A stretch of 44,210 nt of DNA from an uncultured Dehalococcoidaceae bacterium (GTDB taxonomy: Bacteria; Chloroflexota; Dehalococcoidia; UBA2979). Below the pieces are notes generated by a model. The model did no database searches, was not told where the DNA came from, and saw only the letters and a list, made by a program, of their open reading frames with translations. The position numbers and the translations under genes are program-made. This document shows positions 2,782-37,196 of the stretch, in pieces. The DNA lies in the NCBI GenBank assembly GCA_964349785.1, contig CAYGHU010000001.1:1-44210 (forward strand), given 5' to 3'. Within the stretch, counting starts at the first letter, position 1, and each line of letters opens with the position of its first letter.

Positions 2782-3561
2782 TTACTTTGCCTCCTCGTAC
2801 GCTTTCTTCACGGCTGCGGACGATTGACTGACGACAGCGCCAAGCCGGTTCTGCTGGAGCGTGTAGCCGTCGAGCAGGCTATTCCCGGTGGCGAACGCTG
2901 AGCCGTTCCATGCCTGCAGGCGCTTGAGTTGTGCCGCTGGGTCAGTCAGGCCGGTGAGGGCCTGGGCGACGGCTGCTGTCAGTGGGTCGGGCATGTCTTC
3001 CTCCTCGTTGGCGTCACGGACGGCACGGACCCACGCTCGGGCGTATCGGTCGCTGGCGCAGGCGGTCGGCGCGGTGCCGTACTTCGCTGCGAGCTCCTTG
3101 TGCTGCCACAGGTTCTTGCCGGCGCCGCTCGATACCGCTGGGCCTATCAGGGGCCGGAGATCCCTAACCAGCCGGCAGAACGTGTCCTCCGCGGCTGGGG
3201 TCAGGGGCTCGCCGTAGTTCGGGGCCAGTCCGCCCTCGGCTTCGATGCTGATGGTGGTGGTGTTGGCATCAGGGCCTCCGCTCGTCCAGGTGCAGGCGAA
3301 CAGCGGGTACATCTGGATGAGCAGGCCATTCTCACGGAGCACAAAGTGCACGCTGGCGGTCGCGTTCGCGGTGTAGCGTCCATCGGGGCCGCGCGAGGTG
3401 TCGAGGAAACGGTTAGGGATGCCGTCGCTGAATTCGTCTTCGCGTCCTACGACGGAGTGCACCGCAAGTGCCCTGCATGAGTTCCTCTGCGAGTAAACTT
3501 TGTCGGGCACGCCGGGTCGGTGCTGAGCCCAATCGATCCAGCCGTCAGGTGTAATGCCCAA
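2782..3561 (-). CDS. N-acetylmuramoyl-L-alanine amidase-type endolysin (Amidase_2/PGRP-like)
   Basis: Reads LAVHSVVG...ASVHFVL...ISIEAEGG...LWQHKELAAKYGTAPTAC, matching the Zn-ligand spacing of Amidase_2. TTG start with a GGAGG 9 nt upstream. Confidence 0.7.
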   Translation of the reverse strand: MGITPDGWIDWAQHRPGVPDKVYSQRNSCRALAVHSVVGREDEFSDGIPNRFLDTSRGPDGRYTANATASVHFVLRENGLLIQMYPLFACTWTSGGPDANTTTISIEAEGGLAPNYGEPLTPAAEDTFCRLVRDLRPLIGPAVSSGAGKNLWQHKELAAKYGTAPTACASDRYARAWVRAVRDANEEEDMPDPLTAAVAQALTGLTDPAAQLKRLQAWNGSAFATGNSLLDGYTLQQNRLGAVVSQSSAAVKKAYEEAK

Positions 3562-9955: not shown

Positions 9956-11506
9956 GTGACAGCCGAACTTTCGATGTGGCCTCCCATCGACTACGTCGAG
10001 GCGATGCTCGGTGGGCACCCTGCGCCAGTCCATCCGGAGACCGGCGTGAAGCTGTGGGACCATGGTCTCCGGCTCTCCAAAGAGCAGCGGAAAATCCTCG
10101 TCTCAGGCGCCCGCTACAAACAGATTTGCGGCGGCGTGCGTGCCGGCAAGTCTTGGGTGGGCGCGGTCCACATCTACATCGACTACCTGTGGCGGCAGCG
10201 TCACGGGTTCGGCGACGACAAGTATCTCGTCGTCGCGCTCGGCTACATCCAGTGCGAAGAGGAGATGAACCACCTCCACCGGCTGCTCGAAGAGGACGGG
10301 ATTCCCCACTACTTCTCGACGCCGAAGCAGGACTCGTGGCGAATCTGGTTCCCGCACAACAACGTCGAGATCAGCACCAAGACGACGGCCGATGTGCCGA
10401 AGCTGTCCTCCAAGGCGTACCGCATGGTCGTCATGGCGGAAGCAAACCAGTCCGTGCGAGAGGCGTACCAGAACCTCAAGGAACGGACTTCGCAGACGCG
10501 CGGCGCCGTCATCCTGGAAGGCACCTTCGAAAAGGCCCTCCCTTGGTATGCCCAGATGCAGGACGAGTGGTCGAAGCCGGGAGCCGAGGGCGAGTCCTTC
10601 GAGCTGCCGACCTGGTCGAACATCGTCAACTACCCCGGCGGGCGGGATGACCCCGAAATCCTCCAGCAGGAAATTGGGATGTCCCCCGAGCGGTTCATGG
10701 AGCGCTTCGGCGGAAAGGCCGGCCGGCGGTCCGACCTTGTCATGCGCTACGCCGACGAACGCTACTGCGTCGCGCACCGCTACCCGAACTTCGCCACGAG
10801 CTTCGACCCCGAGGGGGAGGTAATCCTCTGGGGCGACCCCGGCAGCACGCACGCCTACGCCGTGGCGGCAATCCAGTTCGACCAAGACCCGATAACGAAA
10901 GCCGAGACCGCCTGGGTATTCGACAGCATCTACCGCTGGAACCTCGACGCAGAGGCCATCATCGAAGAAGCCGCCAACCGTCCTTGGGCGGCGAACGTGT
11001 CGTCCATCGTGCTCGACTTCGCTGCGCGCCAGCAGAACGCAAACGGCCCGGCGAACACGGAGCAGTGGGCGAAAGGCTGGCTGCGAAAGACCGGCCGGCA
11101 GATTTACGTGGAGACGCAGCAGGTGCCTTTGCAGGTGGGTTACGACGTCCACAAGCGGGCGCTGCTCAACGACTGGCCCGAGGACGTTGCTCGAGCGACG
11201 TTCGACCGCGAAGGAGTCATGCGGCGCGTCACGAACCCCGAGGGCAACCGCATCATGTTCGCCCCCGGCGCGTGTCCGGCTGTGTGGGGCGGACACGTCG
11301 ATGGGCAGTTCTACCAGGGCGAGTATTCGCTGCACCGCCAGAAGCGAAACCGGGAAGGCTCACAGGTGGGTGACGACCCGATTCCTGTGGATGACGACAT
11401 GATCAAGGCCATCAACTACGGCGCGTATCACCGCTGGGGAGCATCGGGCCACGCACGGCGGCTGGACTACACTCCGCGGACATGGGAACTCGTCGTCGCG
11501 TCATAA
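9956..11506 (+). CDS. terL: Terminase large subunit
   Basis: Walker A GGVRAGKSW, Walker B-like YRMVVMAEAN, and C-terminal nuclease-like acidic motifs (ILWGDPGSTHAY, IVLDFAAR). Followed by the portal. Confidence 0.85.
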   Translation: MTAELSMWPPIDYVEAMLGGHPAPVHPETGVKLWDHGLRLSKEQRKILVSGARYKQICGGVRAGKSWVGAVHIYIDYLWRQRHGFGDDKYLVVALGYIQCEEEMNHLHRLLEEDGIPHYFSTPKQDSWRIWFPHNNVEISTKTTADVPKLSSKAYRMVVMAEANQSVREAYQNLKERTSQTRGAVILEGTFEKALPWYAQMQDEWSKPGAEGESFELPTWSNIVNYPGGRDDPEILQQEIGMSPERFMERFGGKAGRRSDLVMRYADERYCVAHRYPNFATSFDPEGEVILWGDPGSTHAYAVAAIQFDQDPITKAETAWVFDSIYRWNLDAEAIIEEAANRPWAANVSSIVLDFAARQQNANGPANTEQWAKGWLRKTGRQIYVETQQVPLQVGYDVHKRALLNDWPEDVARATFDREGVMRRVTNPEGNRIMFAPGACPAVWGGHVDGQFYQGEYSLHRQKRNREGSQVGDDPIPVDDDMIKAINYGAYHRWGASGHARRLDYTPRTWELVVAS

Positions 11507-11545: not shown

Positions 11546-13621
11546 ATGCCGGATGCGATATTTGCTGTTCCGCGCCCGAAAGGGTATAGCCCGCCGAACT
11601 TCCAGAAGGTTGAGGAGCTTCTAAAAGAGCTCAAGCGGGAGCGCCAGCCCGTCATTAACCGCATCTGGGCGATGAAGAGGGCGCGAAGGGGTGATTGGCG
11701 TTACATCATCCAGCGCATCCCGGCTCCTTACCGGACGTACATCCCTGACCCGGACCTCCCGGTGGTGCGCGACATGCTGCAACGCATCGTCGGCCTCATC
11801 ACCCGGCAAGAGCCCATCTTTCAAGTCACCCCGGCCTCCGGCCGACCGCCGGAAGTCCACGCTGCCTCCAAAGAAGAGGCGCGGCTCCACGCGCTGCGAC
11901 TGACCATCGAAGACCAGCAGGACAGGCCCGTCTACGCGATGGGCATCGATGCACAGGTGGCCTGGGGCGAATCGTGGATTGGAGTGTGGCCGGACCCGAC
12001 CCGGCTCGGTGGCGATTACGAACGGGAGAAGGGCGAGGACGCCAAGGATTACGGCCACCGCTACGAAAAGCTGATGGCGCGCGGCGGAGTCCCTATCCAG
12101 TTCGTCGACTTTGACCCGCAGGGCGTCTTCCCGAAGTACAGCCGCGAGCGGTTGGCGATGGTCATCATCGAGACCGAACACTCCCTCACGGATATCGACC
12201 TCGGACTCGGCTACAAGCCCATCGGCTCGGACGGGAAAATCGTCGCATGGCATAAGGGGACGCTCGGCGAAGCGCAGGTAGCTGACCGCGAAGAGTCCCC
12301 CGAAGGCTCAGTGAGCGCGGTGGTCGACCGCCGCACCGATGACGACCCGCAGGGCCAGTCCGCCATGTTCCCGAGCAAGGTGAAGAAGGTCATCTACTGC
12401 GACTCGTGGGTGTGCGTGACGTACATCGACGGCAAGAAGGCCGGCGAGACCTGGGAGCACAACTACGGTTTCGTGCCCATCGTCCCCGCCCTCGGCGAGC
12501 AGACGAGCGACCGCGACCCCGCGTGGCAGTCCGCCGGCCTCGCCGACGCCGTCCTCAAGGTGGCGGAACAGCTTGTCCTCCAGGCCGCGATTATGACTGC
12601 GAGCGCGATGCGGAACGGATTCCCGACAGCGTTCTTGAAGAACCCGGCGCACGGCATCACCCAGCCCCGCGGCAACGAGCCCGCGACCCGGCCGGTGGCG
12701 CTCGGGATGATGAACTTCCTCGGGCCGCAGGAGGAAATCCTCTTCCCCTACAACCAGGCCAACATGAGCCAGGACTTCTACCGGAACCTGGAATGGCTCC
12801 AAGACCAACTCGAAAACGCCACTCCCAGCAACTTCGGGAAGGCTGTCGGCAGCGACATCGCGGGCTACGCAATCGCGCAGATTCGGAACGCCCAGCTCAG
12901 CTCGCTCGCCCCGGTCTACAAGAACGCCGCGCGGCAGTGGCGGAAGATCGGCTACATCCTCCGGCACATCATCCGCACGGAATTCCCCGGCGGTATCTAC
13001 CTTCGCGGTGCCGTCGAGGAAACAGACACCGGCCAGAGCTTCCAGCCGGTCATGAAGTACGGCCCGGAGCACTGCACCGACTGCGCCATCAACGTGATGA
13101 TCGAAGAGGGCATCCCGCAGGACGAGATGTCTCAGCAGAAGATGGCGATCGAGCTCGGCCAGGCCGGCTACTGGTCGCCCCGCCGCGTCATGGAAAAGAC
13201 CGGCGTTGAAGACCCCGACGCCGAGGGCCAGGAAATCCGCGACGCCACGCTGCGGAACTCCCCCGGCTACGCGCAGCAGGTCCTCACCCTCGCGATGGCG
13301 CTCAATGCCGAGCGATACGGCATGGTCGAGGAGGAGTCGAACGACCCCTTCAAGCAGGCGCTCGCGGCGGCGAAGCAGAAGGTAATCGGTGCCCGGCCCG
13401 GTGCGGGGACGATGTCCGGCGGGCAGCCCCCGAACGAGGGCGGGCTCCCCCAGAACGCCAACCCCGGCGGGCAGCCCATTCAGCAGGCTCCTCCCCCGGC
13501 GACACCGCTCGAAGGTGGGCCGACCGCTGGGCCGGCTGCCAACCAAAGCCTGGACCTCAAAAGCGTGGCGGTCCCGCAGATGCCCGGCGGGCCAAAGATG
13601 CGGGAGACGGTGCCAGCGTGA
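11546..13621 (+). CDS. Portal protein (by position and size), with a P/G/Q-rich C-terminal tail
   Basis: 691-aa ORF immediately after terL. Low-complexity C-terminus. No motif verified. Confidence 0.7.
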   Translation: MPDAIFAVPRPKGYSPPNFQKVEELLKELKRERQPVINRIWAMKRARRGDWRYIIQRIPAPYRTYIPDPDLPVVRDMLQRIVGLITRQEPIFQVTPASGRPPEVHAASKEEARLHALRLTIEDQQDRPVYAMGIDAQVAWGESWIGVWPDPTRLGGDYEREKGEDAKDYGHRYEKLMARGGVPIQFVDFDPQGVFPKYSRERLAMVIIETEHSLTDIDLGLGYKPIGSDGKIVAWHKGTLGEAQVADREESPEGSVSAVVDRRTDDDPQGQSAMFPSKVKKVIYCDSWVCVTYIDGKKAGETWEHNYGFVPIVPALGEQTSDRDPAWQSAGLADAVLKVAEQLVLQAAIMTASAMRNGFPTAFLKNPAHGITQPRGNEPATRPVALGMMNFLGPQEEILFPYNQANMSQDFYRNLEWLQDQLENATPSNFGKAVGSDIAGYAIAQIRNAQLSSLAPVYKNAARQWRKIGYILRHIIRTEFPGGIYLRGAVEETDTGQSFQPVMKYGPEHCTDCAINVMIEEGIPQDEMSQQKMAIELGQAGYWSPRRVMEKTGVEDPDAEGQEIRDATLRNSPGYAQQVLTLAMALNAERYGMVEEESNDPFKQALAAAKQKVIGARPGAGTMSGGQPPNEGGLPQNANPGGQPIQQAPPPATPLEGGPTAGPAANQSLDLKSVAVPQMPGGPKMRETVPA

Positions 13622-14055
13622 GCGCCATCTCGGCCGACCCGATGCGGTCATCCGGGACGAAGCCCTACGGGGCGCCGCGCAAACCCGCTCCCGGTACGAA
13701 CGCGATGACGGACGACGGGAAGCGTGTCGCTGACCTCATGTGGGAAGACGCCAAGCGGCTCGCCAACGCTATCGGCGGGGAGTCTCCAGACGATGCGATG
13801 GAACTCGACGAGCACGATGCATGGCTCATCCTGGAAACGGTGGCCGGCGTGCTGCCGCCCGCTCAGTGGAACGACCCGAACGCGCTGACCGACCTGTTCG
13901 AGCTCCGGCGGAAGTTCGCCCAGCTTGAGAGTCCCGAGCTCCGTGTGCTGGCATCGCAGCAGCGGCGAATCAAGGCGCTCACGCCCGACATCTCCATCAC
14001 CCCGGCCAACCCAGCATTCGAAGCGATGCAGCGCCGACTCGCAAGGAGCGCCTAA
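13618..14055 (+). CDS. Hypothetical 145-aa protein
   Basis: GTGA overlap with the portal gene. Confidence 0.6.
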   Translation: MSAISADPMRSSGTKPYGAPRKPAPGTNAMTDDGKRVADLMWEDAKRLANAIGGESPDDAMELDEHDAWLILETVAGVLPPAQWNDPNALTDLFELRRKFAQLESPELRVLASQQRRIKALTPDISITPANPAFEAMQRRLARSA

Positions 14056-15999
14056 ATGCCGATGAAGTTTCCTCCCGCCGTCGAGCAGCACCGCGCCACT
14101 GTCGCGAAATACTTTCCGCCGGAACTGGTGGACAAGGCGCTCTACGTCATCCAGCACGAAAGCGGCGGCAACCCCGGCGCGGTGGGAGACGGTGGCGCTG
14201 CGCGCGGCCTGTTCCAGATTCAGGACAAGCGGAACTTCTCGAACCGCCCAGACGCGGCCTACCTGGACAACGCCGAGAACAACATCAAATACGCAGCCCA
14301 GCAACTCGGCGCGGCCAGGGGCGACTTCTCTGCGTGGGGCGAAGGCACCGAGAACATGGCGCCGTACGACCCAAAGACCGGCAAGGGGAAGTTCGGCGCG
14401 CTGGGGAACAACCCCTTCCCCGGTGGCGCGAGGACGCTCGAATACGTCGACGGTCGCGACAACAGCAAGCGGACCACACTGCCGGGCGACCCGAACGCCC
14501 CGGACTGGCAGCGAAACCCCCTCAACGGGCGGGCGCCTCTCGCGGATGGAGTGGAAATGACGACCCCAACCTCGAACCCGCTGGGTGACTACACCCGCCA
14601 GCGACAGATGCTCGTCGACGCCTTGGAGCGCGCCCTCCAAGTTACCCGGCAAACCCCGGACGACCAGAACGCCATCCTGAACCTGAACTACGCCATCAAG
14701 AACCTTTCGGAGTTCGATTCGGCGAAGGGCAATCAGGCCCTCCTCAAGGACAACAAGGCACAGACGGCATTCAACAACGCCGTGTCGCTGGGCGACTTCA
14801 AGCTCAGGTACGCCGCGGCCGGCTACAACCGCTACCTCGACAAGTCCAAGATGGCGCGCGACGCTGCGGCTGCCGAGCTCTCGGACATGCAGGCGCGGAA
14901 CGAAGCAGCGCAGGCCGGCCCCAGCATGGGCGAGCGGTTCGACCTCGAAAAGAAGACCGGCGTCCTCGCGGGCGGGTACACCATTCCCCCGAGTTTCGAA
15001 GACGTCCATGCGAAGTGGAAGGAGAAGTTCGGCGTCGGCGATGAGCCCGATATGCCGGACGACCCGGACATCGCTATTCCGTCTTTCTCCAGCGATGAGG
15101 AACCGGGCGGGTACAGCGGCGGCGACCAATATGACGACACAGTCGAGACCAACGTCGAGTTCCGTCCCGGCAATCCCTGGAACGACCGCAGCGTCCAGCC
15201 GGAGAAGAAGGAATCGCGCAACGGGCTCGCCACGCCCTACGGCACCATCGGCTTCGGCTCGAAGGGCCCGTTCTGGGACACCCCGCTTTTTCAGTTCGAG
15301 CCGCTGTCTCCGGGCATGGGCGGCGAAACGTTTTCCAACGGCGAGCGGTACGCGTTCCAGAACGCATGGAAGAACCGCCCCTCGGTAGGCGACATGGGCG
15401 GGACGGCCGGCGACGTGGCGAATGCCATTCGCGGCGGCGTCGGTGGCCTCGTCGGTGGCGCAAAGAAACAGGCGGGCTCCGTGGACAACTGGTGGAACGC
15501 AATCAAGAAGCCGGACAAGTGGAAGTTCGGCATCCCTCACCTGGCTGGCGGGACGGACAACCACAGGGGCGGACCCGCGATGCTGAACGACGGAGCAGGG
15601 CCGGAGACCATCATCGGCCCGGACGGGAAGCCCTTCACCCTCCCTGGCGGGCCGCAGGTAGCAGACCTTCCGGCCGGTTCGGCGGTACTCCCCGCGGGTA
15701 TCGACCCGAACGAGGCCATGTCCTACATGCAGATCCGGCAAGCCGCGCAGCAGCCGGATGAAGCGGAAGACCCGATTCAGCGGGCCGTGCGCGATGCTGA
15801 CCCGAATGCTGAGCAGGCGACGAAGCAGGCGCTCTACAAGGCGATGGTCAACTTCCTGGCGATGAATGCGCCGCAGACACCGACCTACACCGGCTCCGGG
15901 CCTGACCCGTGGGCGCACAACCGCGTCCTCAGTGGGATTCCCGCCGACCCCGCGCAAGCGGAGGAACTAGCCGCCGCGGCAGCGAAGGGGAAGCGCTAA
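14056..15999 (+). CDS. Virion-module protein with an N-terminal lytic transglycosylase (SLT) domain
   Basis: Reads YVIQHESGGNPGAVGDGGAARGLFQIQ...NIKYAAQQL, the SLT ES/GLxQ/Y signature. C-terminal GGPAMLNDGAGPETII-type motif. Confidence 0.75.
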   Translation: MPMKFPPAVEQHRATVAKYFPPELVDKALYVIQHESGGNPGAVGDGGAARGLFQIQDKRNFSNRPDAAYLDNAENNIKYAAQQLGAARGDFSAWGEGTENMAPYDPKTGKGKFGALGNNPFPGGARTLEYVDGRDNSKRTTLPGDPNAPDWQRNPLNGRAPLADGVEMTTPTSNPLGDYTRQRQMLVDALERALQVTRQTPDDQNAILNLNYAIKNLSEFDSAKGNQALLKDNKAQTAFNNAVSLGDFKLRYAAAGYNRYLDKSKMARDAAAAELSDMQARNEAAQAGPSMGERFDLEKKTGVLAGGYTIPPSFEDVHAKWKEKFGVGDEPDMPDDPDIAIPSFSSDEEPGGYSGGDQYDDTVETNVEFRPGNPWNDRSVQPEKKESRNGLATPYGTIGFGSKGPFWDTPLFQFEPLSPGMGGETFSNGERYAFQNAWKNRPSVGDMGGTAGDVANAIRGGVGGLVGGAKKQAGSVDNWWNAIKKPDKWKFGIPHLAGGTDNHRGGPAMLNDGAGPETIIGPDGKPFTLPGGPQVADLPAGSAVLPAGIDPNEAMSYMQIRQAAQQPDEAEDPIQRAVRDADPNAEQATKQALYKAMVNFLAMNAPQTPTYTGSGPDPWAHNRVLSGIPADPAQAEELAAAAAKGKR

Positions 16000-17444
16000 T
16001 GCCGAACACCACCATCACCAACCAGGGGCAGGACCCCTACACTATCTCCGAGGACTTCGAGGGCAGCTACCAGCAGTGGCTGAACGAAACCGCAACTGCG
16101 ATGGCGCAGCGGTATGCCACGGGCGATCAATCGATGCTCGATGGCCTCAGCGGCGCGACCGGCCCGGTGGGGCAGCCGCTCCGGACGGACTTCGGGAAGA
16201 ACACCGTTTCCGACCAGACGGTTAACTTCTTCAAGCGCTACCTGCAAGCCTACGGATCAAGCGACCCGTACATCGGGCAAAACTTCGGAACTCCTCCGGG
16301 ACGAAGTGCCACCTTCACCCAGAGCCCCAACTCCCCCTCGGTCCTCAAGGGACTCGACGGCAAGAATGCCATCGACCTCGGGACGCTCCAGGGGAAGAAC
16401 TCGATTGACCTCGAAACGCTCCAGGGGAAGAACGCGCGCGACCTCCAAGCGGACACCGATGCGGCCGCGATGGCACGGTCGCAGGGGCAGTGGGACAACA
16501 ACTGGAAGATCGCCTCGCTCCAGGACGCGACCTCGCGATGGAAGGCTGAGGGCGATTGGGGTGTCCAGAAATACGTTGCGGAGCTCGGGGAGAAGGGGGC
16601 GCTCGACCGGCTCATGCTCCAGCTCGGATTCGACCGGGAACGGCTCGCGCTCGATGCCAAGACGCAGCGCGACAACATGGACCTCGAATACAAGAAGCTC
16701 GCGCTCGAGATCGCGAAGTACGACGCGGAGCTCGCCGGCCAGCCGCAGAACATCTGGAAGTATGCCGCTTGGCTCCAGAAGCGCGGCCAGGTGGTCAACG
16801 GCCTGAACATTGCGATGGCGTCGTCCATCGTGCCGGCCGAATCCATCTCCGCGGCGACCGTGGCAAGCAGCGGCATCCCCGGCGCGGCTGCTATCGCCAC
16901 GACGTTCATGGACGAGACCAACCAGATGAGCCCCACTCCGGAAGTGCAGCGGTATGCCGCCGAAGCGCTCCAGCGGAGCGGGCAGCCGCGCGTCGCGCAG
17001 GAAGGCACCGGCAGCATGGCGCCAGTGAGCACCACCACGACGCCGATGAACAACCTCTCCGCGCAGGGATTGCAGCAGACGACGGATTACGCCGCGCTGA
17101 CGAACCAACTCCTCAACCGGAACCCGCTCCAAGCGGACGCGCCCTCCGTCTCGGACATGCAGGACATCACCACCGACCGGACGCGCGAGCTTGCTGGTGT
17201 CTCCGGCGGGAAGGGCGGATTCGGCTCATGGCAGGGGCCAACCACGAACGCGCTCGGCGTGAACGTGGGCGACCCTTCCGGGCAGAAGGTCGATTACCGC
17301 GCCTTCTACGACGCACCGTGGGCTCAACAGCAGATGAAGCTCGCGGACGTCGGCTCGGTGGGGAAGTTTCAAAACGACTTCCTCGGCGAGATGCAGCGCG
17401 CGCGACCGAAGGGCAACGCCACGGGCGCTGCCTCCTGGGGGTAG
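15999..17444 (+). CDS. Hypothetical 481-aa virion-module protein
   Basis: TAATG overlap with the upstream gene. Short tandem LxGKNxIDL repeats and coiled-coil-like stretches. Confidence 0.65.
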   Translation: MPNTTITNQGQDPYTISEDFEGSYQQWLNETATAMAQRYATGDQSMLDGLSGATGPVGQPLRTDFGKNTVSDQTVNFFKRYLQAYGSSDPYIGQNFGTPPGRSATFTQSPNSPSVLKGLDGKNAIDLGTLQGKNSIDLETLQGKNARDLQADTDAAAMARSQGQWDNNWKIASLQDATSRWKAEGDWGVQKYVAELGEKGALDRLMLQLGFDRERLALDAKTQRDNMDLEYKKLALEIAKYDAELAGQPQNIWKYAAWLQKRGQVVNGLNIAMASSIVPAESISAATVASSGIPGAAAIATTFMDETNQMSPTPEVQRYAAEALQRSGQPRVAQEGTGSMAPVSTTTTPMNNLSAQGLQQTTDYAALTNQLLNRNPLQADAPSVSDMQDITTDRTRELAGVSGGKGGFGSWQGPTTNALGVNVGDPSGQKVDYRAFYDAPWAQQQMKLADVGSVGKFQNDFLGEMQRARPKGNATGAASWG

Positions 17445-17447
17445 TCC

Positions 17448-20400
17448 ATGCCTTTCGATAAGCCGTGGCGCTGGGCGGACAAAGAGCTCGTCCGGAACCA
17501 GCAGCAGCGCAAGTTCGAAGAGACCGCTCTCGCCACCGATGACGAGCGGCAGCGCCGTTTCTTCGGCCAGGATGCCGCCGACCCCGGCAATCGCTTCTGG
17601 CAAGGCACGGACCCGACACCGCAGCGGCAAGGCAACGCCTTCACGGACATGGTCGGCAAGGCGATGAAGCCGCTCGGCTGGGCGAAGGAGAACATTGGCG
17701 AGCCGATTGGCGGCGATGTGCTCGGTGCGTTGACCGACGACAAGGGCCATTTTTCCATCAGCCCAAAGGGTGTGTTGAAAGCGGAGATCGCGGCGAACCC
17801 CATCTCCCGCATCGTCTCCGATGTGTGGGGCGGCGATAAGCCGTACTCCACGGGCAAGGACGAGTACCAGCGCTTCCGTGCCAGCGACGCGCCGGTAGGC
17901 GTCAAGGTGGGCGCCGATGTCGCTATCGACCCGCTGTCATGGATAGGCCCGGGTGCGCTCAAAGGCCTGGGCCTCGGCAAGGTGGCGAGCTTCCTGGAGC
18001 AGCCGGTACAGGCGACGGTTGGCGGCGCGATCGGTGCCGGCGCCGCGGCGCAGGTTGCCGAACAGGCGGACGCGCCGGATTGGGTGAAGGCTGCCGCGCC
18101 GTTCGTGGGCGGATTGGCCGGCGGGGTGGCCGGTGGCGTCGCGCGTCCCCCGACCGCTGCGGAGATTCGCGCGGCGAAGATGGGCGCCAAGGCTGGCTTC
18201 ACCTTCCCGGTGACAGGTGTCATCCACGCTGACCAACATCACGCCGAGCGGTACATGGACGTGCTGACCCGACATGAGGTGCCGTGGGAAATCGGGGACG
18301 AGGGCTTTATCGAAGCCGACCGCGAAGTCGCCGAAGCGACCGCGAAGCGCCTCAGCGCAGCTACCCGCGTCCTCGAAGGGGACAAGACGCCCGGCGGCGG
18401 CGATGCGGTGCACTGGATTCCGAAGTATGGCACCCCCGAGTACGACGATTACATGCGTCGCCTCGAAGGCGGGTACGACAACAAAGAAGGCTCCGGCCGC
18501 AGCATTGACGGACGCTCCGGGCCGAGTGGCGACCCCGACGAAATCCGCGCGGCAGTTAAGGACCTGACGGACATGCAGCGGATTTACGAAGTGCTGCAAG
18601 ACGAAATCGTGGAGCCTCACATCGAGGGCCGCCGAGTGGGCTTCAAGGGCGGCGAGACCGTCACGCCAAACGATGATCCGATGGCAGTTCTCGAAGCCAT
18701 AGGCGGCGTGACGACCGGGAAGCAGGGGGACAAAAACCTGACGACCGTTGCGGCTGCCCTATCGGAAGCGGACGCCTATGCGAACGGCCTCATAAGCGCC
18801 GAGACCTCGCCGGACGATCTCATCGTCGAGATTGCCGCGCACATCAAGTCTCGCGAGTTCAACACGCAGATTGGGAAACGCGGCGGGCGGAAGAACCTCA
18901 ACATGACGGAGCGGGCCTACCGGCAGCGCCTGATTGAAATCGGAGACGCGTTCGAGGCGAGCGGCCACGACGCGGTGTATGATCCAACCAATGCCCGGAG
19001 TGCCGTACCAGAACCTGGAACACTACCTACAGGACCCGACGGACAGGGAGTGGGCGGGGAGTCGTCGGCTGGCGGAACTGCGGCGGATAGCGGACCACTT
19101 CCAGTCGAAGGAGTCCCCGGAACCGCCCCCTGGGAGTGGACAGCCGAACACGAAGCCGTCCTCTCCCAGCTAGATCCGGAGACTCAGCAGAAGTTCGACG
19201 AACTCTTCCCCGGTCGGCGGACAGGTGCCGCGGACAGCGGCGAATCGACGTTTCAGGACAGCGCAGGGACAGGCCCGGACAGCTCCGGCCCGATACCGCC
19301 CCTCGACCGCACAAGCGCACGCTCCGCTCTCGGCCTCGACCCGAACGGCACCTACACGCCCGATGAGTTGAAGCAGGCTTGGCGCGCCGCGGCCCGTCGC
19401 TACCATCCGGACGTCAACCCTTCCGCCACGGCGACAGAGGACATGCAGGCCATCAACGCCGCATACGACGAGCTCCTTCACGGCAACAGCGGGTACGACT
19501 GGACGGACGCGTACGATAACCCCGCTGCCGGAGCCGGTGGTGGCGCGGGCACGCCGCCGCCGCCCGGTGGCTCATGGGGCGGACAGCAGTCCACTCCTGG
19601 TGGAAGCTGGGGGGCGCAGGCGACCGGTGCCGGCTGGGGCGCGAAGGCGCACGCTCCGAACCCGCCGCCTCCTCCGGCCGGTGGTCCCTCCTTCAAGCAC
19701 TTCGCTCAGGACGAGCGGTTCGACATCTTCAAGGCCAAGTCTCGCGACAAGACGATGTCCGAGGCCAGCGCGTGGATGGACTCCGCGAAGGGCAAGTTCG
19801 CGCAGACAATCCGCGAGTGGGTGAGCAAGGCCGGCGGCAGCAACTTCGACAAGAACCTCATCCTCGACGCCAAGATCACCCCGTTCATCGTGGGCGAGAA
19901 GAACCGCACGGCGAACATCATCAACTCGTGGGTGCTCTCCGTACGAGAGAAAGCGCAGCGGCAGTTCGAAGCCGCGGGCCTCATGGTCGAGCAGGACGCT
20001 GCGGGCGACTTCCGCATCAAGGGGCTCGGCATCCCGGTCGAGGACCTGGTCGACAGCCGCGGCCGTGCAAAGAATGCTGCGGCACAGGCAGCCTACGCCG
20101 CGCTCACGCCAGAGCAGCGGGCAGCCGTCGACTACCTGGAATGGGCGAACGAAGCGGTGGTGAAGACCATCCTCGCGCACAACGGGAAGCCGACGTTGGA
20201 CGGCGACCTCGTCGGGGAATACTTCCCGCGCAAGGTGGATTCCGTGGATGGGACGGCCCGCACGAGCGGCGCTTCGAATGCCAACCGCTCGCGCACGATG
20301 GAGTCCGTCGAGGAGGCGCTGAACCGGAACGTCGGCGGAAAGGTCGGCTACGGGAATCCCTGGGAAGCCTTCGAGGCCGGTCTCCGTGGGAAGCTGCTCG

Positions 20401-22487
20401 AAGCGCAGGACGCCTACATGGTGGAATCGCTCCAGCCGCTCGCGGTGAAGGGCAACGGCGGCACCATCCGGAAGGGATTCGGGTACGACACTGCGGACGC
20501 CCGCCCGTTCCGTGGACCTCATCCGATGGCGCCGGACATGCTGTTCCCGCAGGACATCGCTGACCGAATCCGCGACGCCTACAAACCGCCAAGTGACGAC
20601 ATCCTGCGGACGCTGCCGGCGGCTATCAACCGCTTCCTGACCCCGCTCCGGGCGAACGGCGACCTCTCCGCGACGCTCCAGCAGGGCATGTCCTTCTGGC
20701 TGCACAACCCGGTGAAGGCGTCGCAGGCATGGCTCGCGACTGTGCGCTCCCTCAAGGAACCGGACGCCTACTACCAGGCCATCGGGAAACTCGATGCGGC
20801 TGGGCCCGGCATGGAAGAGCACGCGAGTTGGGGCGCTCACTGGACCGGCGGATCGGACGAAGAGATGTTCCTCCCGAAGCTGGCCGAAAAGCTGACGAAG
20901 GGACAGGTGAAGGAGATCCCTGTCCTCGGCACCGTGGCTCGGAAGTCGAATGAGCACTTCTCTCGCTTTCTGAACCTCGCCAAGGCAGAGATGGGGAACG
21001 ACGCGTTCGAGCGGGCGACCGCGATGGGCCTCAAGGGTGAAGCCCTCGACGACCACATGCGCTCCGCGTGGAACGCCATCAACCGGCAGACCGGCTGGAC
21101 CGGCCGCAAGCCAACCTCCATCGAGGCCGCGTTTGTCTTTGCGCCGCGCTACACCTCGGCCACCATCGAGCAGGTCGCGGCGGCATTCACGAAGGGCGAC
21201 ATCGAAGGGGCGATGGCCCGTCGTCATCTCGGGAAGCTCCTCGCGCTCACCGCGGGCACGGCGTGGATAGTGAACACGAAGCAGGGGTACGAGACCGACT
21301 TCGACCCGCGATCGAATGACTTCCTCCGGATGCGGAACATTGCCGGCCTCGACGCCACGATGGCGGGCAGCTACGACGTCCTCGTCCGCGCCATCGCAGG
21401 CACCGTGGCCGGTAAGCCTGGCGAAGGACTCAAGCCCGACCTCGCCCGCCCAGCGCGCTTCGCGGAAGCCAAGCTCGCGCCTGTGGCGAAGACCATCGAA
21501 GAACTGATGACCGGCGAGACCTACATCGGCGAGCCCATCAGCATCACGAACGACCCCGTGAAGGCAGTCAAAGAGCAGGTGAAGTCGAGCCTCCCGTTCG
21601 GCGTCCAGAACCTCATCGAAGAAGGGCCGGCTGCAGCGCTCGTCGGCACTACCGGCCTGAGTGCCCGCATCGTGTCCCCCACCGACAAGCTGGCACGGGA
21701 ACGCGACAAGGCCGCGGGCGGCAACTACGAAGCCCTCCCCGGCGAAAAGAAGTCCGTCGTCAACGCCAACCCCAAGGTGGCAGCCGCCCAGGAGAAGGCT
21801 GACGAACAGGCCCTCCGACGCGGCGGGGAATCCGCGCTCCGCGTCCAGATCCGCCGCCAGTCCGGCGACGCAATGGCAGCCAACGCTGAATTCCTCAAGG
21901 CGGGCAAGGACGAAGCTGGTAATGCGTTTAGCGGAAATGATTACCGCGAAGCCTACCACAGCCTACAGGCGTATCTCGCGGGCCAGCGGGACACACTCAA
22001 GAAGTTCTCAGGTGGCGACAAGGAGATCGACGGCTGGTTCGCGCTGTACGACCAGGCCAAGATGGCGAACCACGAACCCGACCGGGACAAGCTCGACCGA
22101 CTCCAAGCGGCCTACGCGGCCGACCATCCCGGCATCCTCGACAAGATCGACCGGCTCACTGGCGTCCACGATGACGGCACGCTGCGGGAATACCGCCAGG
22201 CCCAGCGGCTCGCCAGGGTGTACTACGCGATGCCCGCCTACATGGGGATGTCTGCGGAGGATTCGGAGAAGGCGCAGTCCGTGCTCGGAACAGCCCGCGG
22301 CCTGGTGATTGCCGGCCGTGCGAGGAACCAAGCTCAGGCGCTCGCGATGCTCTCGAAGCAGGACCCGAAGGGTGTCTCGGCCGCGCGGCGGGCCAGTGGG
22401 CGCCCAGCGAACCCTGCGCGGGCGCAATTCAGGCAGAAGAATCCCCTGTTCGGGAAGTTCTACTCCGAGGCGATAACGCTGCAATAG
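17448..22487 (+). CDS. Giant 1679-aa virion-module protein (ejection/internal or polyvalent-type) containing a DnaJ-type J-domain
   Basis: Single uninterrupted ORF. Gly-zipper-like segment FVGGLAGGVAGGVA. J-domain with HPD at nt 19404-19412. Gly/Pro/Trp-rich linker. Confidence 0.8.
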   Translation: MPFDKPWRWADKELVRNQQQRKFEETALATDDERQRRFFGQDAADPGNRFWQGTDPTPQRQGNAFTDMVGKAMKPLGWAKENIGEPIGGDVLGALTDDKGHFSISPKGVLKAEIAANPISRIVSDVWGGDKPYSTGKDEYQRFRASDAPVGVKVGADVAIDPLSWIGPGALKGLGLGKVASFLEQPVQATVGGAIGAGAAAQVAEQADAPDWVKAAAPFVGGLAGGVAGGVARPPTAAEIRAAKMGAKAGFTFPVTGVIHADQHHAERYMDVLTRHEVPWEIGDEGFIEADREVAEATAKRLSAATRVLEGDKTPGGGDAVHWIPKYGTPEYDDYMRRLEGGYDNKEGSGRSIDGRSGPSGDPDEIRAAVKDLTDMQRIYEVLQDEIVEPHIEGRRVGFKGGETVTPNDDPMAVLEAIGGVTTGKQGDKNLTTVAAALSEADAYANGLISAETSPDDLIVEIAAHIKSREFNTQIGKRGGRKNLNMTERAYRQRLIEIGDAFEASGHDAVYDPTNARSAVPEPGTLPTGPDGQGVGGESSAGGTAADSGPLPVEGVPGTAPWEWTAEHEAVLSQLDPETQQKFDELFPGRRTGAADSGESTFQDSAGTGPDSSGPIPPLDRTSARSALGLDPNGTYTPDELKQAWRAAARRYHPDVNPSATATEDMQAINAAYDELLHGNSGYDWTDAYDNPAAGAGGGAGTPPPPGGSWGGQQSTPGGSWGAQATGAGWGAKAHAPNPPPPPAGGPSFKHFAQDERFDIFKAKSRDKTMSEASAWMDSAKGKFAQTIREWVSKAGGSNFDKNLILDAKITPFIVGEKNRTANIINSWVLSVREKAQRQFEAAGLMVEQDAAGDFRIKGLGIPVEDLVDSRGRAKNAAAQAAYAALTPEQRAAVDYLEWANEAVVKTILAHNGKPTLDGDLVGEYFPRKVDSVDGTARTSGASNANRSRTMESVEEALNRNVGGKVGYGNPWEAFEAGLRGKLLEAQDAYMVESLQPLAVKGNGGTIRKGFGYDTADARPFRGPHPMAPDMLFPQDIADRIRDAYKPPSDDILRTLPAAINRFLTPLRANGDLSATLQQGMSFWLHNPVKASQAWLATVRSLKEPDAYYQAIGKLDAAGPGMEEHASWGAHWTGGSDEEMFLPKLAEKLTKGQVKEIPVLGTVARKSNEHFSRFLNLAKAEMGNDAFERATAMGLKGEALDDHMRSAWNAINRQTGWTGRKPTSIEAAFVFAPRYTSATIEQVAAAFTKGDIEGAMARRHLGKLLALTAGTAWIVNTKQGYETDFDPRSNDFLRMRNIAGLDATMAGSYDVLVRAIAGTVAGKPGEGLKPDLARPARFAEAKLAPVAKTIEELMTGETYIGEPISITNDPVKAVKEQVKSSLPFGVQNLIEEGPAAALVGTTGLSARIVSPTDKLARERDKAAGGNYEALPGEKKSVVNANPKVAAAQEKADEQALRRGGESALRVQIRRQSGDAMAANAEFLKAGKDEAGNAFSGNDYREAYHSLQAYLAGQRDTLKKFSGGDKEIDGWFALYDQAKMANHEPDRDKLDRLQAAYAADHPGILDKIDRLTGVHDDGTLREYRQAQRLARVYYAMPAYMGMSAEDSEKAQSVLGTARGLVIAGRARNQAQALAMLSKQDPKGVSAARRASGRPANPARAQFRQKNPLFGKFYSEAITLQ

Positions 22488-22535: not shown

Positions 22536-23528
22536 ATGCAACCGGATGGAGCCCCGAGCGAGACCCCTGTCCTAGAAGCCCCGGTAGACGCGGCACCCGC
22601 GCCCGCACCTGATGCGGCCCCGGAAACTCCGCCCTCCGAGACAACCTGGGAACAGGCAGCCGCCGAGGCACGAGCCGCCGTTGACGCGCAGTCCAAGGCC
22701 CCGGAGGAAACCACTCCCGCGCCCGACGCGCAAGAGACGCCCGCCGAAGAGACCCCACCGGATAGCCGCGATAAGGGCCGACGTTCACCCGAAGAGGGCG
22801 CGCTAGACCGCGCTCTGAACCTGCGTATGCAGGGCAAGGAGTCGGAGCTATCGGACAAGGCGAAGAGGCTGCTCGCCACTTACGACGAGCAGGTTTCGGC
22901 GCAGGCAATCACCAAGTACCGCGAGGAACAGACGAAGGAAGCGGAACTGCGACAGGTTTACTTGTCGTTGGAAGCCGAGCGCATGGAGAACCCTGCCGAG
23001 TTTGCGTCCAAGTTGGTCGCGAACGAAGGCATCGCGATCTTCATGAACTCCTTCAAGGCCCGCTTCCCTGATGTTTCACTCGAACGGCCGGACGCCCCAC
23101 GCCAGGAAACGGCGGAAGAGATTTCGCAGCAACTGGTCCGGGAGTTTGGCAAGGGTTTCGAGCGCGCGTTCTCCGCGATTGGCTCCGATGCAGGCCTGAG
23201 TGATGAGGCGATTAACGCTCTCCGGAGCGAGTTTGTTTTCGGCGAACACCCCGACAGCGCGAAGCTGGGTTCCTTCCTGGGCAAGGCGATGACGCAAGTC
23301 GCAGCCCAAGCCGGGAAAGAAGCGAAGGCCCGCGCAACGGCGGCCGAGACCGAGAACGACGCACTCAAGAAAGAACTCAGCGCCCTAAAGCTCAGGACTC
23401 ACCAGCCCCCCGCGCACGTTCCCAGCTCCGGCGGAAACGGTTTCTCAAGCGGTGTCACCAACGAAAGTGCCGAGGCTCGTTGGGGCTCAGCCGTCGCTCA
23501 AGCCCGTGAAGTCGTGGCTGCCGGCTAG
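22536..23528 (+). CDS. Scaffolding-like protein (acidic, Ala/Glu-rich, helical)
   Basis: Lies immediately upstream of the capsid gene. P/E/A-rich N-terminus and coiled-coil C-terminus (ENDALKKELSALKL). Confidence 0.55.
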   Translation: MQPDGAPSETPVLEAPVDAAPAPAPDAAPETPPSETTWEQAAAEARAAVDAQSKAPEETTPAPDAQETPAEETPPDSRDKGRRSPEEGALDRALNLRMQGKESELSDKAKRLLATYDEQVSAQAITKYREEQTKEAELRQVYLSLEAERMENPAEFASKLVANEGIAIFMNSFKARFPDVSLERPDAPRQETAEEISQQLVREFGKGFERAFSAIGSDAGLSDEAINALRSEFVFGEHPDSAKLGSFLGKAMTQVAAQAGKEAKARATAAETENDALKKELSALKLRTHQPPAHVPSSGGNGFSSGVTNESAEARWGSAVAQAREVVAAG

Positions 23529-23570: not shown

Positions 23571-24536
23571 GTGGTTGCTGGAAACGCAAACTATCTGACC
23601 ACGCTCCTTACGACCACTCTGGAGATTTACCTCTCCAAGATGCCGAAGGACACCATTTTCAATTCCATTCCCCTCCTGGATCAGCTCCAGAAGCGGGGGA
23701 AGAAAACCCAAAAGGGCGGGACCATCTGGCTCGAACCCATCATGTACGAGGGGAACGAGACGGGAGAATCCTACTCCGGCTGGGATCGCCAGGACATCTC
23801 GCCGCAGGAAGGGTTCACGAACGCTCAGTTCGGCCCGAAGTATTACCGCTGGGCGCTGGCGATTGATAACCAGCAGCTCTCGGAGAACTCGGGCGACGCG
23901 CAGGTTATCGACATCCTGTCGATCAAGTGGCGGCAGCTCGAAAAGAGCGCCAGGAACCTCATCAACGCCGACCTGTACCTCGCCGGCACCGCGAACGGGG
24001 GCAAGACGTTGACCGGCCTCGCCCTCGCGGTCGATAGCTCGGGAACGTACGGAAACATCGTACGTTCGGCGAACTCCTGGTGGAGCGCCGTGGAAACCCC
24101 GGTCGCGGGCACGCTGCAAGTCACCGGCTCGACCGGCCTGCGGCGCTTCTGGAACGACCTGTCCAACGGGCAGGGCTCCGAGAACCCCGACATGTTCCTG
24201 ACAACCTCCGCTGTCCACGAAGGCTACGAAGCACTCATGGACCCGCGGATGCAGTTCACGAACCGCGGCGCTCAGGACGTCGGCTACCCGGGTTCCGGTG
24301 GCCTCGTCTTCAAAGAGAAGCCCATCTATTGGGACGACGCGTGCCAGTCCGGCGTGCTGTACGGCCTGAACCTCGACTACCTCGCGCTCCGCGTGGTGCC
24401 GGGCGACGATTTCTCGCACGGCGCGTTCAAGGAACCGATCGACCAGCGCGGCAAGGTCGCCCCGGTCTATTGGTCCGGGAACCTCGTCGCCAGCAACTGC
24501 CGCTTCCTCGGGAAGCTCACCGGCCTCACCAACTAA
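23571..24536 (+). CDS. Major capsid protein
   Basis: 321-aa ORF after the scaffold-like gene. Sequence style typical of tailed-phage coat proteins (IWLEPIMYEGNETGESYSGWD...). Called by position and size. Confidence 0.7.
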   Translation: MVAGNANYLTTLLTTTLEIYLSKMPKDTIFNSIPLLDQLQKRGKKTQKGGTIWLEPIMYEGNETGESYSGWDRQDISPQEGFTNAQFGPKYYRWALAIDNQQLSENSGDAQVIDILSIKWRQLEKSARNLINADLYLAGTANGGKTLTGLALAVDSSGTYGNIVRSANSWWSAVETPVAGTLQVTGSTGLRRFWNDLSNGQGSENPDMFLTTSAVHEGYEALMDPRMQFTNRGAQDVGYPGSGGLVFKEKPIYWDDACQSGVLYGLNLDYLALRVVPGDDFSHGAFKEPIDQRGKVAPVYWSGNLVASNCRFLGKLTGLTN

Positions 24537-25052: not shown

Positions 25053-25859
25053 ATGGCAGGCGGCGTAGGGTTCATCTCTTCCGAGTACGAGGCGGGGACT
25101 GGCGACCTTGTCTTCTACTCGGCCAACGGCACCGAAATCGCGCGCTTTGACGAGGCCACAACCGCGTTTGTGCTCGCGGCTGGAGCGGCGCTGACCCTCG
25201 TTGCCGATGACGTGAAATTCAACCTGGGCACGGATGGCGATATCGCTGCCGTGCTCAGGTCCACCGTCCTCAACGCCAACACCACCCTTACCGGTGCGAT
25301 TGTGGGCACGCCGGTTACTCCGGCGCAGGCCGCAAACAGCTTCATCCTCGCCAACAAGACGGCGGACGGCGACATGCTGTTCGTCACTCAGACGGGCGGC
25401 AACTCGCACGCGTTCATGTGGTACGACACCTCGGCGAAGATTCTGCGCCTCTACTCCGGAGACGGGGTCGAGGTAGCGAAGTTCGATGCCGCGGCGACCA
25501 CCATCACCGGCACGCTCGCCGTCACCGGGAAGACAACGCTTACGGGCGGACTGAACCTCGGTGCTGCCGAGGCAGTCACGATCTCCGGTGGCGTTGCGGC
25601 CGTGACCAAGTCGTTCGTCTCGCTCGCGGGCGAGGGCGCGACCACGGACACGCTTGATTCCATCACCAAGTCCGGCCAGGCAGAGGGGGACATCCTCATT
25701 CTGCGTTGTGCCGGCAACTACACGATTACCGCCGACAACAGCGCGACCTTGCTCCTCGGAGCCGCGACGCGCGCACTCGCACAGGGAGCAGTCCTGATCC
25801 TCATCGCCACCTCGGCGACGATTTGGTCTGAGCTCGCATTCCTGACGGCGGCGTCCTAA
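25053..25859 (+). CDS. Structural protein, Ala/Thr/Gly-rich beta-type
   Basis: 268-aa ORF in the head module. Confidence 0.55.
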   Translation: MAGGVGFISSEYEAGTGDLVFYSANGTEIARFDEATTAFVLAAGAALTLVADDVKFNLGTDGDIAAVLRSTVLNANTTLTGAIVGTPVTPAQAANSFILANKTADGDMLFVTQTGGNSHAFMWYDTSAKILRLYSGDGVEVAKFDAAATTITGTLAVTGKTTLTGGLNLGAAEAVTISGGVAAVTKSFVSLAGEGATTDTLDSITKSGQAEGDILILRCAGNYTITADNSATLLLGAATRALAQGAVLILIATSATIWSELAFLTAAS

Positions 25860-25862
25860 CCG

Positions 25863-26252
25863 ATGCCCCACTACGAGTTCAGGTGTCCGGAGTGCGGCGG
25901 TGAGGAAACTCTCCGTCGCAGCTTCGCTGCAATGGATGAACCAGCTCCCTGCTCAGGGTGCCGGGCGCCAATGACGCGCCTGTTCTCGCTGACCAACAAC
26001 GTCCACATCCCGCTCCACTTCCGGATGCTTCGCACCGGGGGTGAGCGGGCTGGGGGACTACTGTCCTTCGAGGACATTCACGGCGTCAGTTCGGAGCGCG
26101 AGCTCGCACGGACGATGCCCGACCTCGAACCGTACGGCCGGGTGATGAGCCGTCCCGGAGTAGGGACCGCCCGCGAATACGATCGCGAGCCCCTGATAGC
26201 CGAGTCTCTGAAAGAAGCGAGGGTAATTGCTGATGCCATCCATGACCGATAA
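25863..26252 (+). CDS. FmdB-type CxxC-CxxC zinc-ribbon protein
   Basis: N-terminal MPHYEFRCPECGGEETLRRSF...PCSGC matches the FmdB-family zinc-ribbon signature. Confidence 0.6.
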   Translation: MPHYEFRCPECGGEETLRRSFAAMDEPAPCSGCRAPMTRLFSLTNNVHIPLHFRMLRTGGERAGGLLSFEDIHGVSSERELARTMPDLEPYGRVMSRPGVGTAREYDREPLIAESLKEARVIADAIHDR

Positions 26253-36719: not shown

Positions 36720-37196
36720 TTAGCCCGCTGCGGCGAACCGTCGTTCGAGACTGTTTAACCGTGTCCGGGCGGCTGCGCGGGACACTTCGAAGCCATTGGC
36801 GAGGCTGGTCGCGGTCGCGTCCTTGGGTATCCACAGGCGCGGCATCAGCACGGACGCCGCGTAGTGGTCTGCGAGGCTGCACTCGTAGCCTGGGCCAAGG
36901 TGGTCACGCCGCGGTGCAATGCCGGCGCCCGCCAGCACATGCCAGCCCTCGTGGAACAGGGTGAAGCGGCGGCGTGCCTCGCTGTCCCTGCGGTTGAGCA
37001 GGACGAGCCAGCGCGAGCCGTCGTCGGATAGCTTGGTGGCGCCCCGAACTGTCCTCGGGAGCACCACCGTCGCCACGCTAAGTTCCCGCACCGGGTCCAG
37101 GCCGTACACCAGGCCGGATGGCACAGGCGGGGAATCGAGGTCGAGAAGGAGCTGGTTGGCTAGGGTCTCAACTGTCCTGAGATCCAGCCTCGGCAC
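36720..37196 (-). CDS. ImmA/IrrE-family (COG2856) zinc metallopeptidase
   Basis: HEXXH as LFHEGWHVL. Lies immediately downstream of an XRE HTH gene. Start uncertain (GTG 37196 or ATG 37271). Confidence 0.75.
   Translation of the reverse strand: MPRLDLRTVETLANQLLLDLDSPPVPSGLVYGLDPVRELSVATVVLPRTVRGATKLSDDGSRWLVLLNRRDSEARRRFTLFHEGWHVLAGAGIAPRRDHLGPGYECSLADHYAASVLMPRLWIPKDATATSLANGFEVSRAAARTRLNSLERRFAAAG

Follow-up and report, generated by a model that had tools for sequence, protein, structure and literature searches.

In this study, a stretch of 44,210 nucleotides (nt), contig CAYGHU010000001.1 of assembly GCA_964349785.1 from an uncultured Dehalococcoidaceae bacterium (hereafter the window), was analyzed, and a giant protein of 1,679 amino acids (aa) encoded at 17448..22487 on the + strand was found to house a segment that is almost certainly a genuine J-domain. 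This J-domain is also very probably functional. Moreover, the giant protein can be assigned to class C (type III) of the J-proteins because it has neither a zinc finger nor a DnaJ C-terminal domain; Pfam gave no match to DnaJ_C or DnaJ_CXXCXGXG in the giant protein. The window is a temperate phage, and the comparisons described below suggest that the class C J-domain is a cargo module of a polyvalent-type protein encoded in the virion gene block, a combination of which no prior description was found in the literature searched.

The J module extends over aa 613-690 (window positions 19284..19517, + strand) and comprises a PPLD motif (aa 617-620) followed by helices I-IV. Within it, the Pfam DnaJ model (PF00226) matched aa 628-676 (nt 19329-19475, + strand) with 35.4 bits against a gathering score of 27.8 (E-value 1.2e-8), covering profile positions 6-53 of 63, and the NCBIfam DnaJ models matched the same stretch. 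In addition, a phmmer search of the PDB sequences returned 25 J-domain chains, among which human DNAJA1 (7e-8), T. thermophilus DnaJ2 and yeast Sis1 led. The His-Pro-Asp (HPD) tripeptide, the sole one of the giant protein, lies at aa 653-655 (19404..19412, + strand) in the loop that joins helix II to helix III. A previous interpretation of this DNA made without database searches (the sequence-only reading) had placed a J-domain with its HPD at nt 19404-19412 inside a 1,679-aa protein, and the Pfam score above the cut-off together with the PDB and NCBIfam matches confirmed it. The open reading frame (ORF) is an uninterrupted frame of 1,679 codons, and its G+C content at third codon positions (GC3) is 0.81, compared with 0.84-0.86 for the other phage genes, which indicated that the + frame is coding. 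Furthermore, an identical protein is encoded on a metagenomic contig in ENA (ERZ27247837 k141_814642, 44,265 bp), of which the window makes up nearly the full length.

In E. coli DnaJ, helix II contacts Hsp70 through a basic surface composed of R22, K26 and K31, plus the aromatic Y25, and the residues Y25, K26, H33, P34, D35 and F47 are essential. The equivalents of these six residues in the giant protein are W645, R646, H653, P654, D655 and M666, W645 being Tyr in most relatives. In addition, K642, W645, R646, R650 and R651 align with the Hsp70-contact positions of E. coli DnaJ helix II, and the equivalent of R27 is Ala. A single-sequence AlphaFold2 (AF2) model of the J module contained helices at aa 621-627, 638-652, 664-678 and 685-690, with the HPD in the loop between the second and the third. 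The mean predicted local distance difference test score (pLDDT) of this model was 49, with helices II-III at about 77 and disorder on both flanks.

The scaffold common to the whole family is a conserved, mostly alpha-helical C-terminal module (C-module) at aa 746-1679 (19683..22484, + strand). An exhaustive search of 1.84 billion cluster representatives with the C-module profile recovered 6,753 at E<=1e-3, of which 1,331 reached E<=1e-30. Nearly all of the best 150 matches are 1,000-2,400 aa long and end with the module, which is preceded by an N-terminal region that varies in length, and the G+C content of the contigs of family members ranges over 40-69%. The relatives of the giant protein are all metagenomic, with none from a cultured phage. 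In the following, P-numbers denote family proteins (P0001 being the giant protein of the window) and L-numbers denote DNA contigs or records. The scan for J-domains covered 152 proteins, which were the best 150 of the 6,753 family representatives and two earlier matches, and the module was present in ten of them (P0001, P0006, P0007, P0009, P0015, P0016, P0019, P0031, P0032 and P0050), on which a J-domain hidden Markov model (HMM), phmmer and Pfam agreed. Three further carriers, namely P0153, P0154 and a 2,109-aa protein of a Tepidiforma prophage (L015), brought the number of giant proteins with the module to 13. The sequence-only reading had proposed a survey of homologous giant proteins for the module, and its outcome was stronger than expected, since 13 relatives carry the module and most of the family lacks it.

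In every carrier the J module stands directly upstream of the C-module, with a low-complexity linker between the two. The carriers share the signature PPPLD(R/T)...LG...Y...A.R...YHPD.N...A(T)...IN.A, in which the ten aligned carriers all have L628/G629, A644, R646, H653/P654/D655, N657, N670 and A672; the HPD is also present in L015, P0153 and P0154. Y636, Y652 and the PPLD are invariant in an alignment of seven proteins (A4) and variable in the more divergent carriers. Moreover, the PPPLD(R/T) motif directly precedes helix I in most carriers, was confined to this position among the 150-odd family proteins scanned and is represented in the window by IPPLDR (aa 616-621; 19293-19310); possible roles are those of a processing site or of an additional surface for contacts. 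Relatives are 50-67% identical to the window's copy over the J module, against 21-44% for the linkers on either side and 37-56% for the C-module. These comparisons indicate that the J module is under selection and has been selectively maintained, because it is more conserved than the linkers that flank it and the same signature recurs in 13 proteins.

In a neighbor-joining tree of the C-module, the carriers formed a core clade (the window, P0015, P0016, L015, P0006 and P0007) and five scattered singletons. P0021 (L100:8393-13843) falls inside the core clade, lacks a J-domain, has a Pfam ddrB-ParB domain and has kept the downstream linker WWPAW...PPPPGGGP, which suggests that the J module was lost or replaced through recombination. 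We read this distribution as pointing to a single origin of the J module, followed by mosaic spread and loss.

The prophage copy is located at L015:7028-13357 in a metagenome-assembled genome (MAG) of Tepidiforma sp. KatS3mg064 (BPIG01000001.1, a 1.0-Mb contig, Chloroflexota). It was found in a scan of bacterial genomes with alignment A4, which otherwise returned cellular DnaJ genes only; a scan of bacterial genomes with the single giant protein returned nothing. The carrier clade is composed of phages with one copy as a prophage in a Chloroflexota genome, and the host assignment rests on that one MAG. In addition to the J module, the L015 giant protein has a cassette of about 270 aa with a GHHR motif, which is common to L015, P0006, P0015, P0016 and about nine members without a J-domain. 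As a candidate ParB domain, the GHHR cassette of L015 and P0006 was rejected, since it has no Pfam support and the ddrB-ParB match belongs to P0021.

The C-module itself had no match in Pfam or among the PDB sequences, and a PHROG scan of 18 C-modules also gave none. An AF2 model from 18 sequences was mostly helical (pLDDT 74, predicted template modeling score 0.50). With this model, Foldseek against BFVD retrieved giant phage proteins with probability 1.0 and E down to 3e-12. Most of these belong to uncultured phages; the cultured ones were Cellulophaga phi19:3, Escherichia PTXU04, Microbacterium Shocker and Celeribacter P12053L. The annotations of the fold matches included LPD38, LPD3, PolyVal ART (an ADP-ribosyltransferase), a DNA methylase, an SNF2-type helicase and a zeta-type kinase, and the BFVD matches annotated as LPD38, LPD3 or PolyVal ART ranged from E 3e-12 to 1e-2. 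The 'internal virion proteins' of the cyanopodoviruses S-CBP2 and S-RIP1 were weak BFVD matches (E 0.012-0.025). Moreover, P0005 bears an LPD-containing name in UniRef. A Pfam scan of 27 family members found DnaJ in ten, and ddrB-ParB, Zeta_toxin/AAA_33, FtsK_gamma and MarR in one each, and alternative cassettes occupy aa 245-620 across the family. In the window's giant protein, the J-domain is the only domain that could be named. Searches of 50,697 phage records by megablast and tblastn gave no match, either with the giant protein or with the divergent members P0005 and P0150. The whole giant protein retrieved itself and one distant match from a database of 5.8 billion proteins, a sparse result in which J-domain and low-complexity words probably crowded the candidate list.

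These properties recall the polyvalent proteins described by Iyer, Burroughs, Anand, de Souza and Aravind in 2017, which are encoded with virion genes, are predicted to be packaged in the capsid and injected, and carry interchangeable host-directed effector domains (PMC5512222). One of them, the 2,811-aa gp47 of phi24B, was detected in abundance in purified virions and has been proposed to be an ejection protein (bioRxiv 10.64898/2026.04.10.717836). The giant protein resembles this class in its size, its multi-module build, its occurrence in a terminase-portal phage in a virion-gene setting, and the exchangeable effector-type domains on a common backbone. Furthermore, ddrB-ParB, a hub domain of the class, is present in relatives, and the fold of the C-module matches LPD-annotated proteins. 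It would therefore appear to work like a polyvalent or ejection protein, and it is not placed in any named Pfam family. In its main text, the polyvalent catalogue makes no mention of DnaJ, J-domain, Hsp70 or DnaK (PMC5512222). Moreover, the terms 'J-domain' and 'polyvalent protein' occurred together in no paper of the literature searched, and a search that combined J-domain terms with ejection or virion terms returned nothing relevant.

J-domains dock ATP-bound Hsp70 via the HPD and helix II, and upon the hydrolysis that they trigger Hsp70 clamps nearby unfolded segments. In the present study, it is tentatively proposed, at a little under even chances for the chain as a whole, that the giant protein is a capsid-packaged and ejected polyvalent-type protein whose J module recruits host DnaK in cis. 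The giant protein, encoded with the head genes, would be packaged in the capsid beside the SLT and 481-aa proteins encoded upstream of it. At infection it would be driven out in a largely unfolded state through the narrow portal/tail channel, and the small J-domain would refold fast in the cytoplasm. ATP-bound host DnaK would then be docked by the HPD together with the basic side of helix II, and ATP hydrolysis would be triggered, upon which DnaK would clamp neighboring unfolded stretches of the same polypeptide. Such recruitment in cis would prevent aggregation and drive the refolding of the C-module and the cargo cassette, and it may also bias the inward movement of the chain. Packaging, ejection, binding and timing are what we infer here; circumstantial support for packaging and ejection comes from the gene position, the capsid lineage, the polyvalent-like fold and the types of module that relatives carry.

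The position of the giant gene in the late head-gene block would also fit an action of the J-domain in the producing cell, where DnaK would aid the folding or solubility of the protein, or keep it loosely folded and so competent to enter the procapsid. This very large protein contains disordered linkers that amount to several hundred residues, with disorder on both sides of the J-domain, and it is an established mechanism that J-domains act locally on an adjacent unfolded substrate; in addition, the sequence is silent on when the domain acts. However, equally large members of the family mostly lack a J-domain, including P0021, which has similar linkers and belongs to the J clade. Moreover, the ddrB-ParB, Zeta toxin and FtsK-gamma domains of relatives are effector types directed to the host or to DNA and not assembly aids. 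A role in the producing cell, the strongest of the alternatives considered here, is therefore regarded as somewhat unlikely.

Alternatively, the J-domain could be a takeover effector that acts in trans, after delivery or synthesis, and redirects DnaK toward host clients or away from them, or directs it to the incoming genome or to replication proteins. The J module and the GHHR cassette, which may be directed to nucleic acids, occur together in four relatives, and polyvalent proteins have been described as carriers of host-directed effectors (PMC5512222). A precedent is Rki (gene 057w) of RB43, a T4-like phage. Rki was the first J-domain protein encoded by a phage to be described as functional; it is small and of type III, acts on DnaK, stabilizes sigma-32 and in this way alters host physiology; a J-domain relative in Aeromonas phage 65 was noted in the same report (PMC3486835). 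Like Rki, the giant protein is of class C, its similarity to cellular DnaJ is limited to the HPD-bearing J-domain, and it would presumably recruit host DnaK. In contrast, Rki is a small stand-alone protein, is encoded outside the structural genes and acts in trans, whereas the J-domain described here is internal (aa 613-690) to a 1,679-aa head-block protein, and no homology between the two extends beyond the J-domain. Several findings also speak against an action in trans: no client-binding domain could be assigned beside the J-domain, nothing conserved travels with it except the PPPLD lead-in, and the GHHR cassette is not recognized as ParB by Pfam. Furthermore, with few copies per virion, titration of an abundant chaperone would be unlikely. 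An effector in trans is accordingly regarded as unlikely, and a local role in cis is favored, because few injected copies presumably could not titrate abundant DnaK.

The contrast with Rki extends to the other J-proteins of phages. J-like matches were found in 31 of the 50,697 deposited phage records, most of which are large Aeromonas myoviruses, and in two inspected records of about 41-47 kb the J-proteins have 232 and 280 aa and lie in early regions. These data, together with the small size of Rki, indicate that the J-proteins of deposited phages are small and non-structural, in line with the sequence-only reading, which had called those described small soluble early proteins. The 'DnaJ domain' of roseophage DNA polymerases (PMC6918029), another candidate, proved to be a zinc-finger region and not a J-domain.

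Several observations weigh against the proposed role of the J module in an ejected protein and should be considered together. With respect to the J module, helix IV is degenerate and lacks its usual motif, and the position of E. coli F47 is variable among the carriers (Met, Ala or Ser). Structure prediction, which had been suggested as a check, gave the four helices in the right order with the HPD in the loop; Foldseek with this low-confidence model was not significant (best E 0.05), although the top three matches were J-domains and those of T antigen, ERdj5 and HscB ranked lower. Most family members have no J-domain (10 of the 152 scanned have one), so that the J function would be accessory. 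With respect to the C-module, its model gave no significant match to the solved structures in the PDB (best E 0.35), which include the ejection proteins of T7, P22 and N4. The Foldseek TM-scores to polyvalent proteins were low (0.2-0.34), which is to be expected when helical proteins are long and flexible. Unlike described polyvalent proteins, neither the giant protein nor P0002-P0006 has a Pfam match to LPD, MuF or peptidase domains, the metallopeptidases of the class included, and the Phage_Mu_F domain (MuF / SPP1 gp7) gave no Pfam match in the giant protein at E<=1. Homology to phi24B gp47 was rejected at the sequence level, as the HMM scores of the C-module against it were all negative. 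Finally, the case for the presence of the giant protein in virions, or for its ejection, is circumstantial, and as a late-gene product it would occur in the producing cell as well, which is an equally possible site of action for the J-domain.

The degenerate helix IV, the Pfam match confined to positions 6-53 of 63 and the dispensability of the module in most of the family would also be compatible with an inert relic or a helical spacer that no longer engages Hsp70. Nevertheless, the HPD and the Arg of helix II are invariant over 13 proteins whose identity here is only 34-59%, and the module is conserved above its flanks and at least as well as the C-terminal scaffold. A relic is therefore very improbable.

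The proposed recruitment of DnaK in cis has partial parallels in several systems. Giant ejected proteins such as the N4 virion RNA polymerase (vRNAP) and T7 gp16 are presumed to traverse a channel of about 35 Å in an unfolded or beads-on-a-string form and to regain their fold in the cytoplasm (PMC13434306, PMC8954989). In a 2026 paper on the N4 vRNAP, the mechanism of expulsion and refolding is treated as an open question and chaperones are never mentioned (PMC13434306). The genes studied here share with the ejection proteins T7 gp14/15/16, P22 gp7/20/16 and N4 gp50-52 a set of large proteins of which one has a lytic transglycosylase domain, here in a phage with a capsid of the Mx8/Brucella Tb group, the lack of a tape measure, the expected unfolded passage and refolding, and hydrophobic segments that might enter a membrane. 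They differ in that the giant protein has no significant sequence or structure match to them and in that the presumed portal and scaffold genes flank this set, which does not follow the tail genes; moreover, no known ejection protein has been reported with a J-domain. The large and small T antigens of polyomaviruses are likewise viral multi-domain proteins whose own J-domain recruits host Hsp70 locally, whereas they belong to a eukaryotic virus, are non-structural, carry the J-domain at the N-terminus and act on unrelated clients. At cellular import channels, Sec63 with BiP and Pam18/Tim14 with mitochondrial Hsp70 place a J-domain at the exit of a narrow channel, so that the unfolded chain coming out is bound by Hsp70, which makes its movement directional and lets it fold. 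There the J-domain is anchored at the channel, whereas in the giant protein it would be part of the translocating chain, and no homology extends beyond the J-domain. A ratchet of a related kind, in which the J-domain fires DnaK onto the segments that follow and entropic pulling hauls in the C-module of about 935 aa, possibly with the end of the genome, is considered quite improbable.

The N-terminal leader of the giant protein (aa 1-150; 17448..17897, + strand) is partly conserved, as shown by BLASTP matches to P0032, P0006, P0016, P0036 and P0069, and its consensus in alignment A4 is MPxxxPWR...VR...AR.F. It is followed by a Gly/Ala-rich, glycine-zipper-like hydrophobic segment at aa 150-245 (17895..18182, + strand), DPLSWIGPG...GGLAGGVAGGVA, which is kept in at least 12 family members and also in P0002. 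The sole hydrophobic peak of the giant protein lies here, with the Kyte-Doolittle window exceeding 1.2 only at aa 213, and the segment is a candidate membrane-inserting element. The variable cassette at aa 246-520 (18183..19007, + strand) is common to P0056, P0051 and P0029 only and had no PDB or Pfam match; in its place, a dozen members have the different cassette of about 270 aa with the GHHR motif. The J module is preceded by a disordered Gly/Pro/Ser-rich linker at aa 521-612 (19008..19283, + strand; AF2 pLDDT <50), which has 23-31% identity to relatives and many sparsely occupied alignment columns.

A second linker, rich in Gly, Pro and Trp, follows the J module at aa 691-745 (19518..19682, + strand; AF2 pLDDT <50). 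The sequence-only reading had likened this tract to the G/F linker of DnaJ. The tract does exist, with Gly and Pro making up 50% of aa 701-750. The likeness was ruled out, since Trp is present and Phe is not, and a charged linker rich in R, E and Q takes its position in five relatives (P0006, P0007, P0016, P0032 and P0050). The tract is a disordered spacer.

The window has a G+C content of 64%, and no tRNAs or Rfam families were found in it. Among its phage genes are those for a tyrosine integrase (35572-36537, - strand), an IrrE/M78-type peptidase regulator (36720-37325, - strand), a DUF2303 protein (38618-39487), RecT (41270-42406), an AAA_25-domain protein (65-1798) and an Amidase_2 endolysin candidate (2782-3561, - strand). 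The head-gene block begins with the terminase large subunit, TerL (9974..11506, + strand; phrog_2, E 4.7e-9). Directly after it lies a 691-aa ORF (11546..13621, + strand) that is presumed by position only to encode the portal and has 54% identity to its Tepidiforma prophage equivalent. A 145-aa ORF separates it from the gene for a 647-aa protein (14056..15999, + strand) with an N-terminal SLT lytic transglycosylase domain at aa 28-86 (PF01464, 27.1 bits against a gathering cut-off of 21.3) and tape-measure-like PHROG matches at aa 433-547. A 481-aa ORF (15999..17444, + strand; gene call) stands directly upstream of the giant gene; it has 39% identity to its L015 equivalent, and ORFs of 419-501 aa occupy its position in L098, L100, L002 and L005. 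Downstream of the giant gene, a 330-aa ORF (22536..23528, + strand), kept in L015, L003, L004, L098 and L100, is presumed by position only to encode the scaffold, as it lies directly before the gene for the major capsid protein (23571..24536, + strand; phrog_9953, E 1.9e-47). Neither the presumed portal nor the presumed scaffold had a match in Pfam, PHROGs, NCBIfam, the PDB sequences or the Mx8 proteins. The context described by the sequence-only reading was thus upheld as regards the head-gene block and the SLT neighbor (PF01464), whereas its labels 'portal' and 'scaffold' are positional and have no family match.

Two antisense ORFs overlie this block. The one over the giant gene (19572-21959, - strand, 795 aa) has a G+C content of 0.84 at first codon positions and a GC3 of 0.65, which is a high-GC artefact, and the one over the SLT gene (13648-15957, - strand, 769 aa) is presumably of the same nature. 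Beyond the capsid gene, a 268-aa ORF of the structural block (25053-25859) has an NlpC/P60 match below the cut-off (E 9e-4) and may be a second wall hydrolase, and the ORF at 25863-26252, also found in contig L098, has a zinc-ribbon domain at 32.9 bits against a cut-off of 34.4.

The nearest cultured relatives of the capsid protein by tblastn were Myxococcus Mx8/Mx9, Brucella Tb/Pr-type phages and Stenotrophomonas BUCT555, at 23-29% identity. The Mx8 / Brucella Tb capsid group is one that we take to be of short-tailed phages, and there is no gene of tape-measure size after the capsid gene of the window. In Mx8 (L097, NC_003085.1 20399-24946) the order is portal, p46, p47 and capsid, with no giant gene between; the trio of SLT, 481-aa and giant genes therefore looks like an extra, inserted block relative to Mx8. 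The order TerL, 691-aa, about 145-aa, SLT, about 480-aa, giant, about 330-aa and capsid is kept in the Tepidiforma prophage (L015), with 33-54% identity per protein, and also in the close relatives L098 and L100. L003 and L004 have kept the order giant, scaffold and capsid, and the distant L002 and L005 have TerL, portal and giant genes with other genes intervening and no Pfam SLT match on record.

In conclusion, these findings extend the phage J-proteins beyond small early proteins, and they describe a family of 6,753 cluster representatives that share a scaffold of about 935 aa without a counterpart in Pfam, PHROG or the PDB. The J-domain would add a chaperone-recruiting module to the polyvalent repertoire, which has so far consisted mostly of enzymes that modify nucleic acids and the host. 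How very large proteins are expelled through a phage channel of about 35 Å and refolded is an acknowledged open question, and a conserved J-domain built into an ejected protein would be the first sequence-level hint that some phages supply their own adaptor for the host Hsp70. If the ratchet were true, it would represent a chaperone-powered step in the entry of phage protein or DNA, analogous to the import motors of mitochondria and the endoplasmic reticulum.

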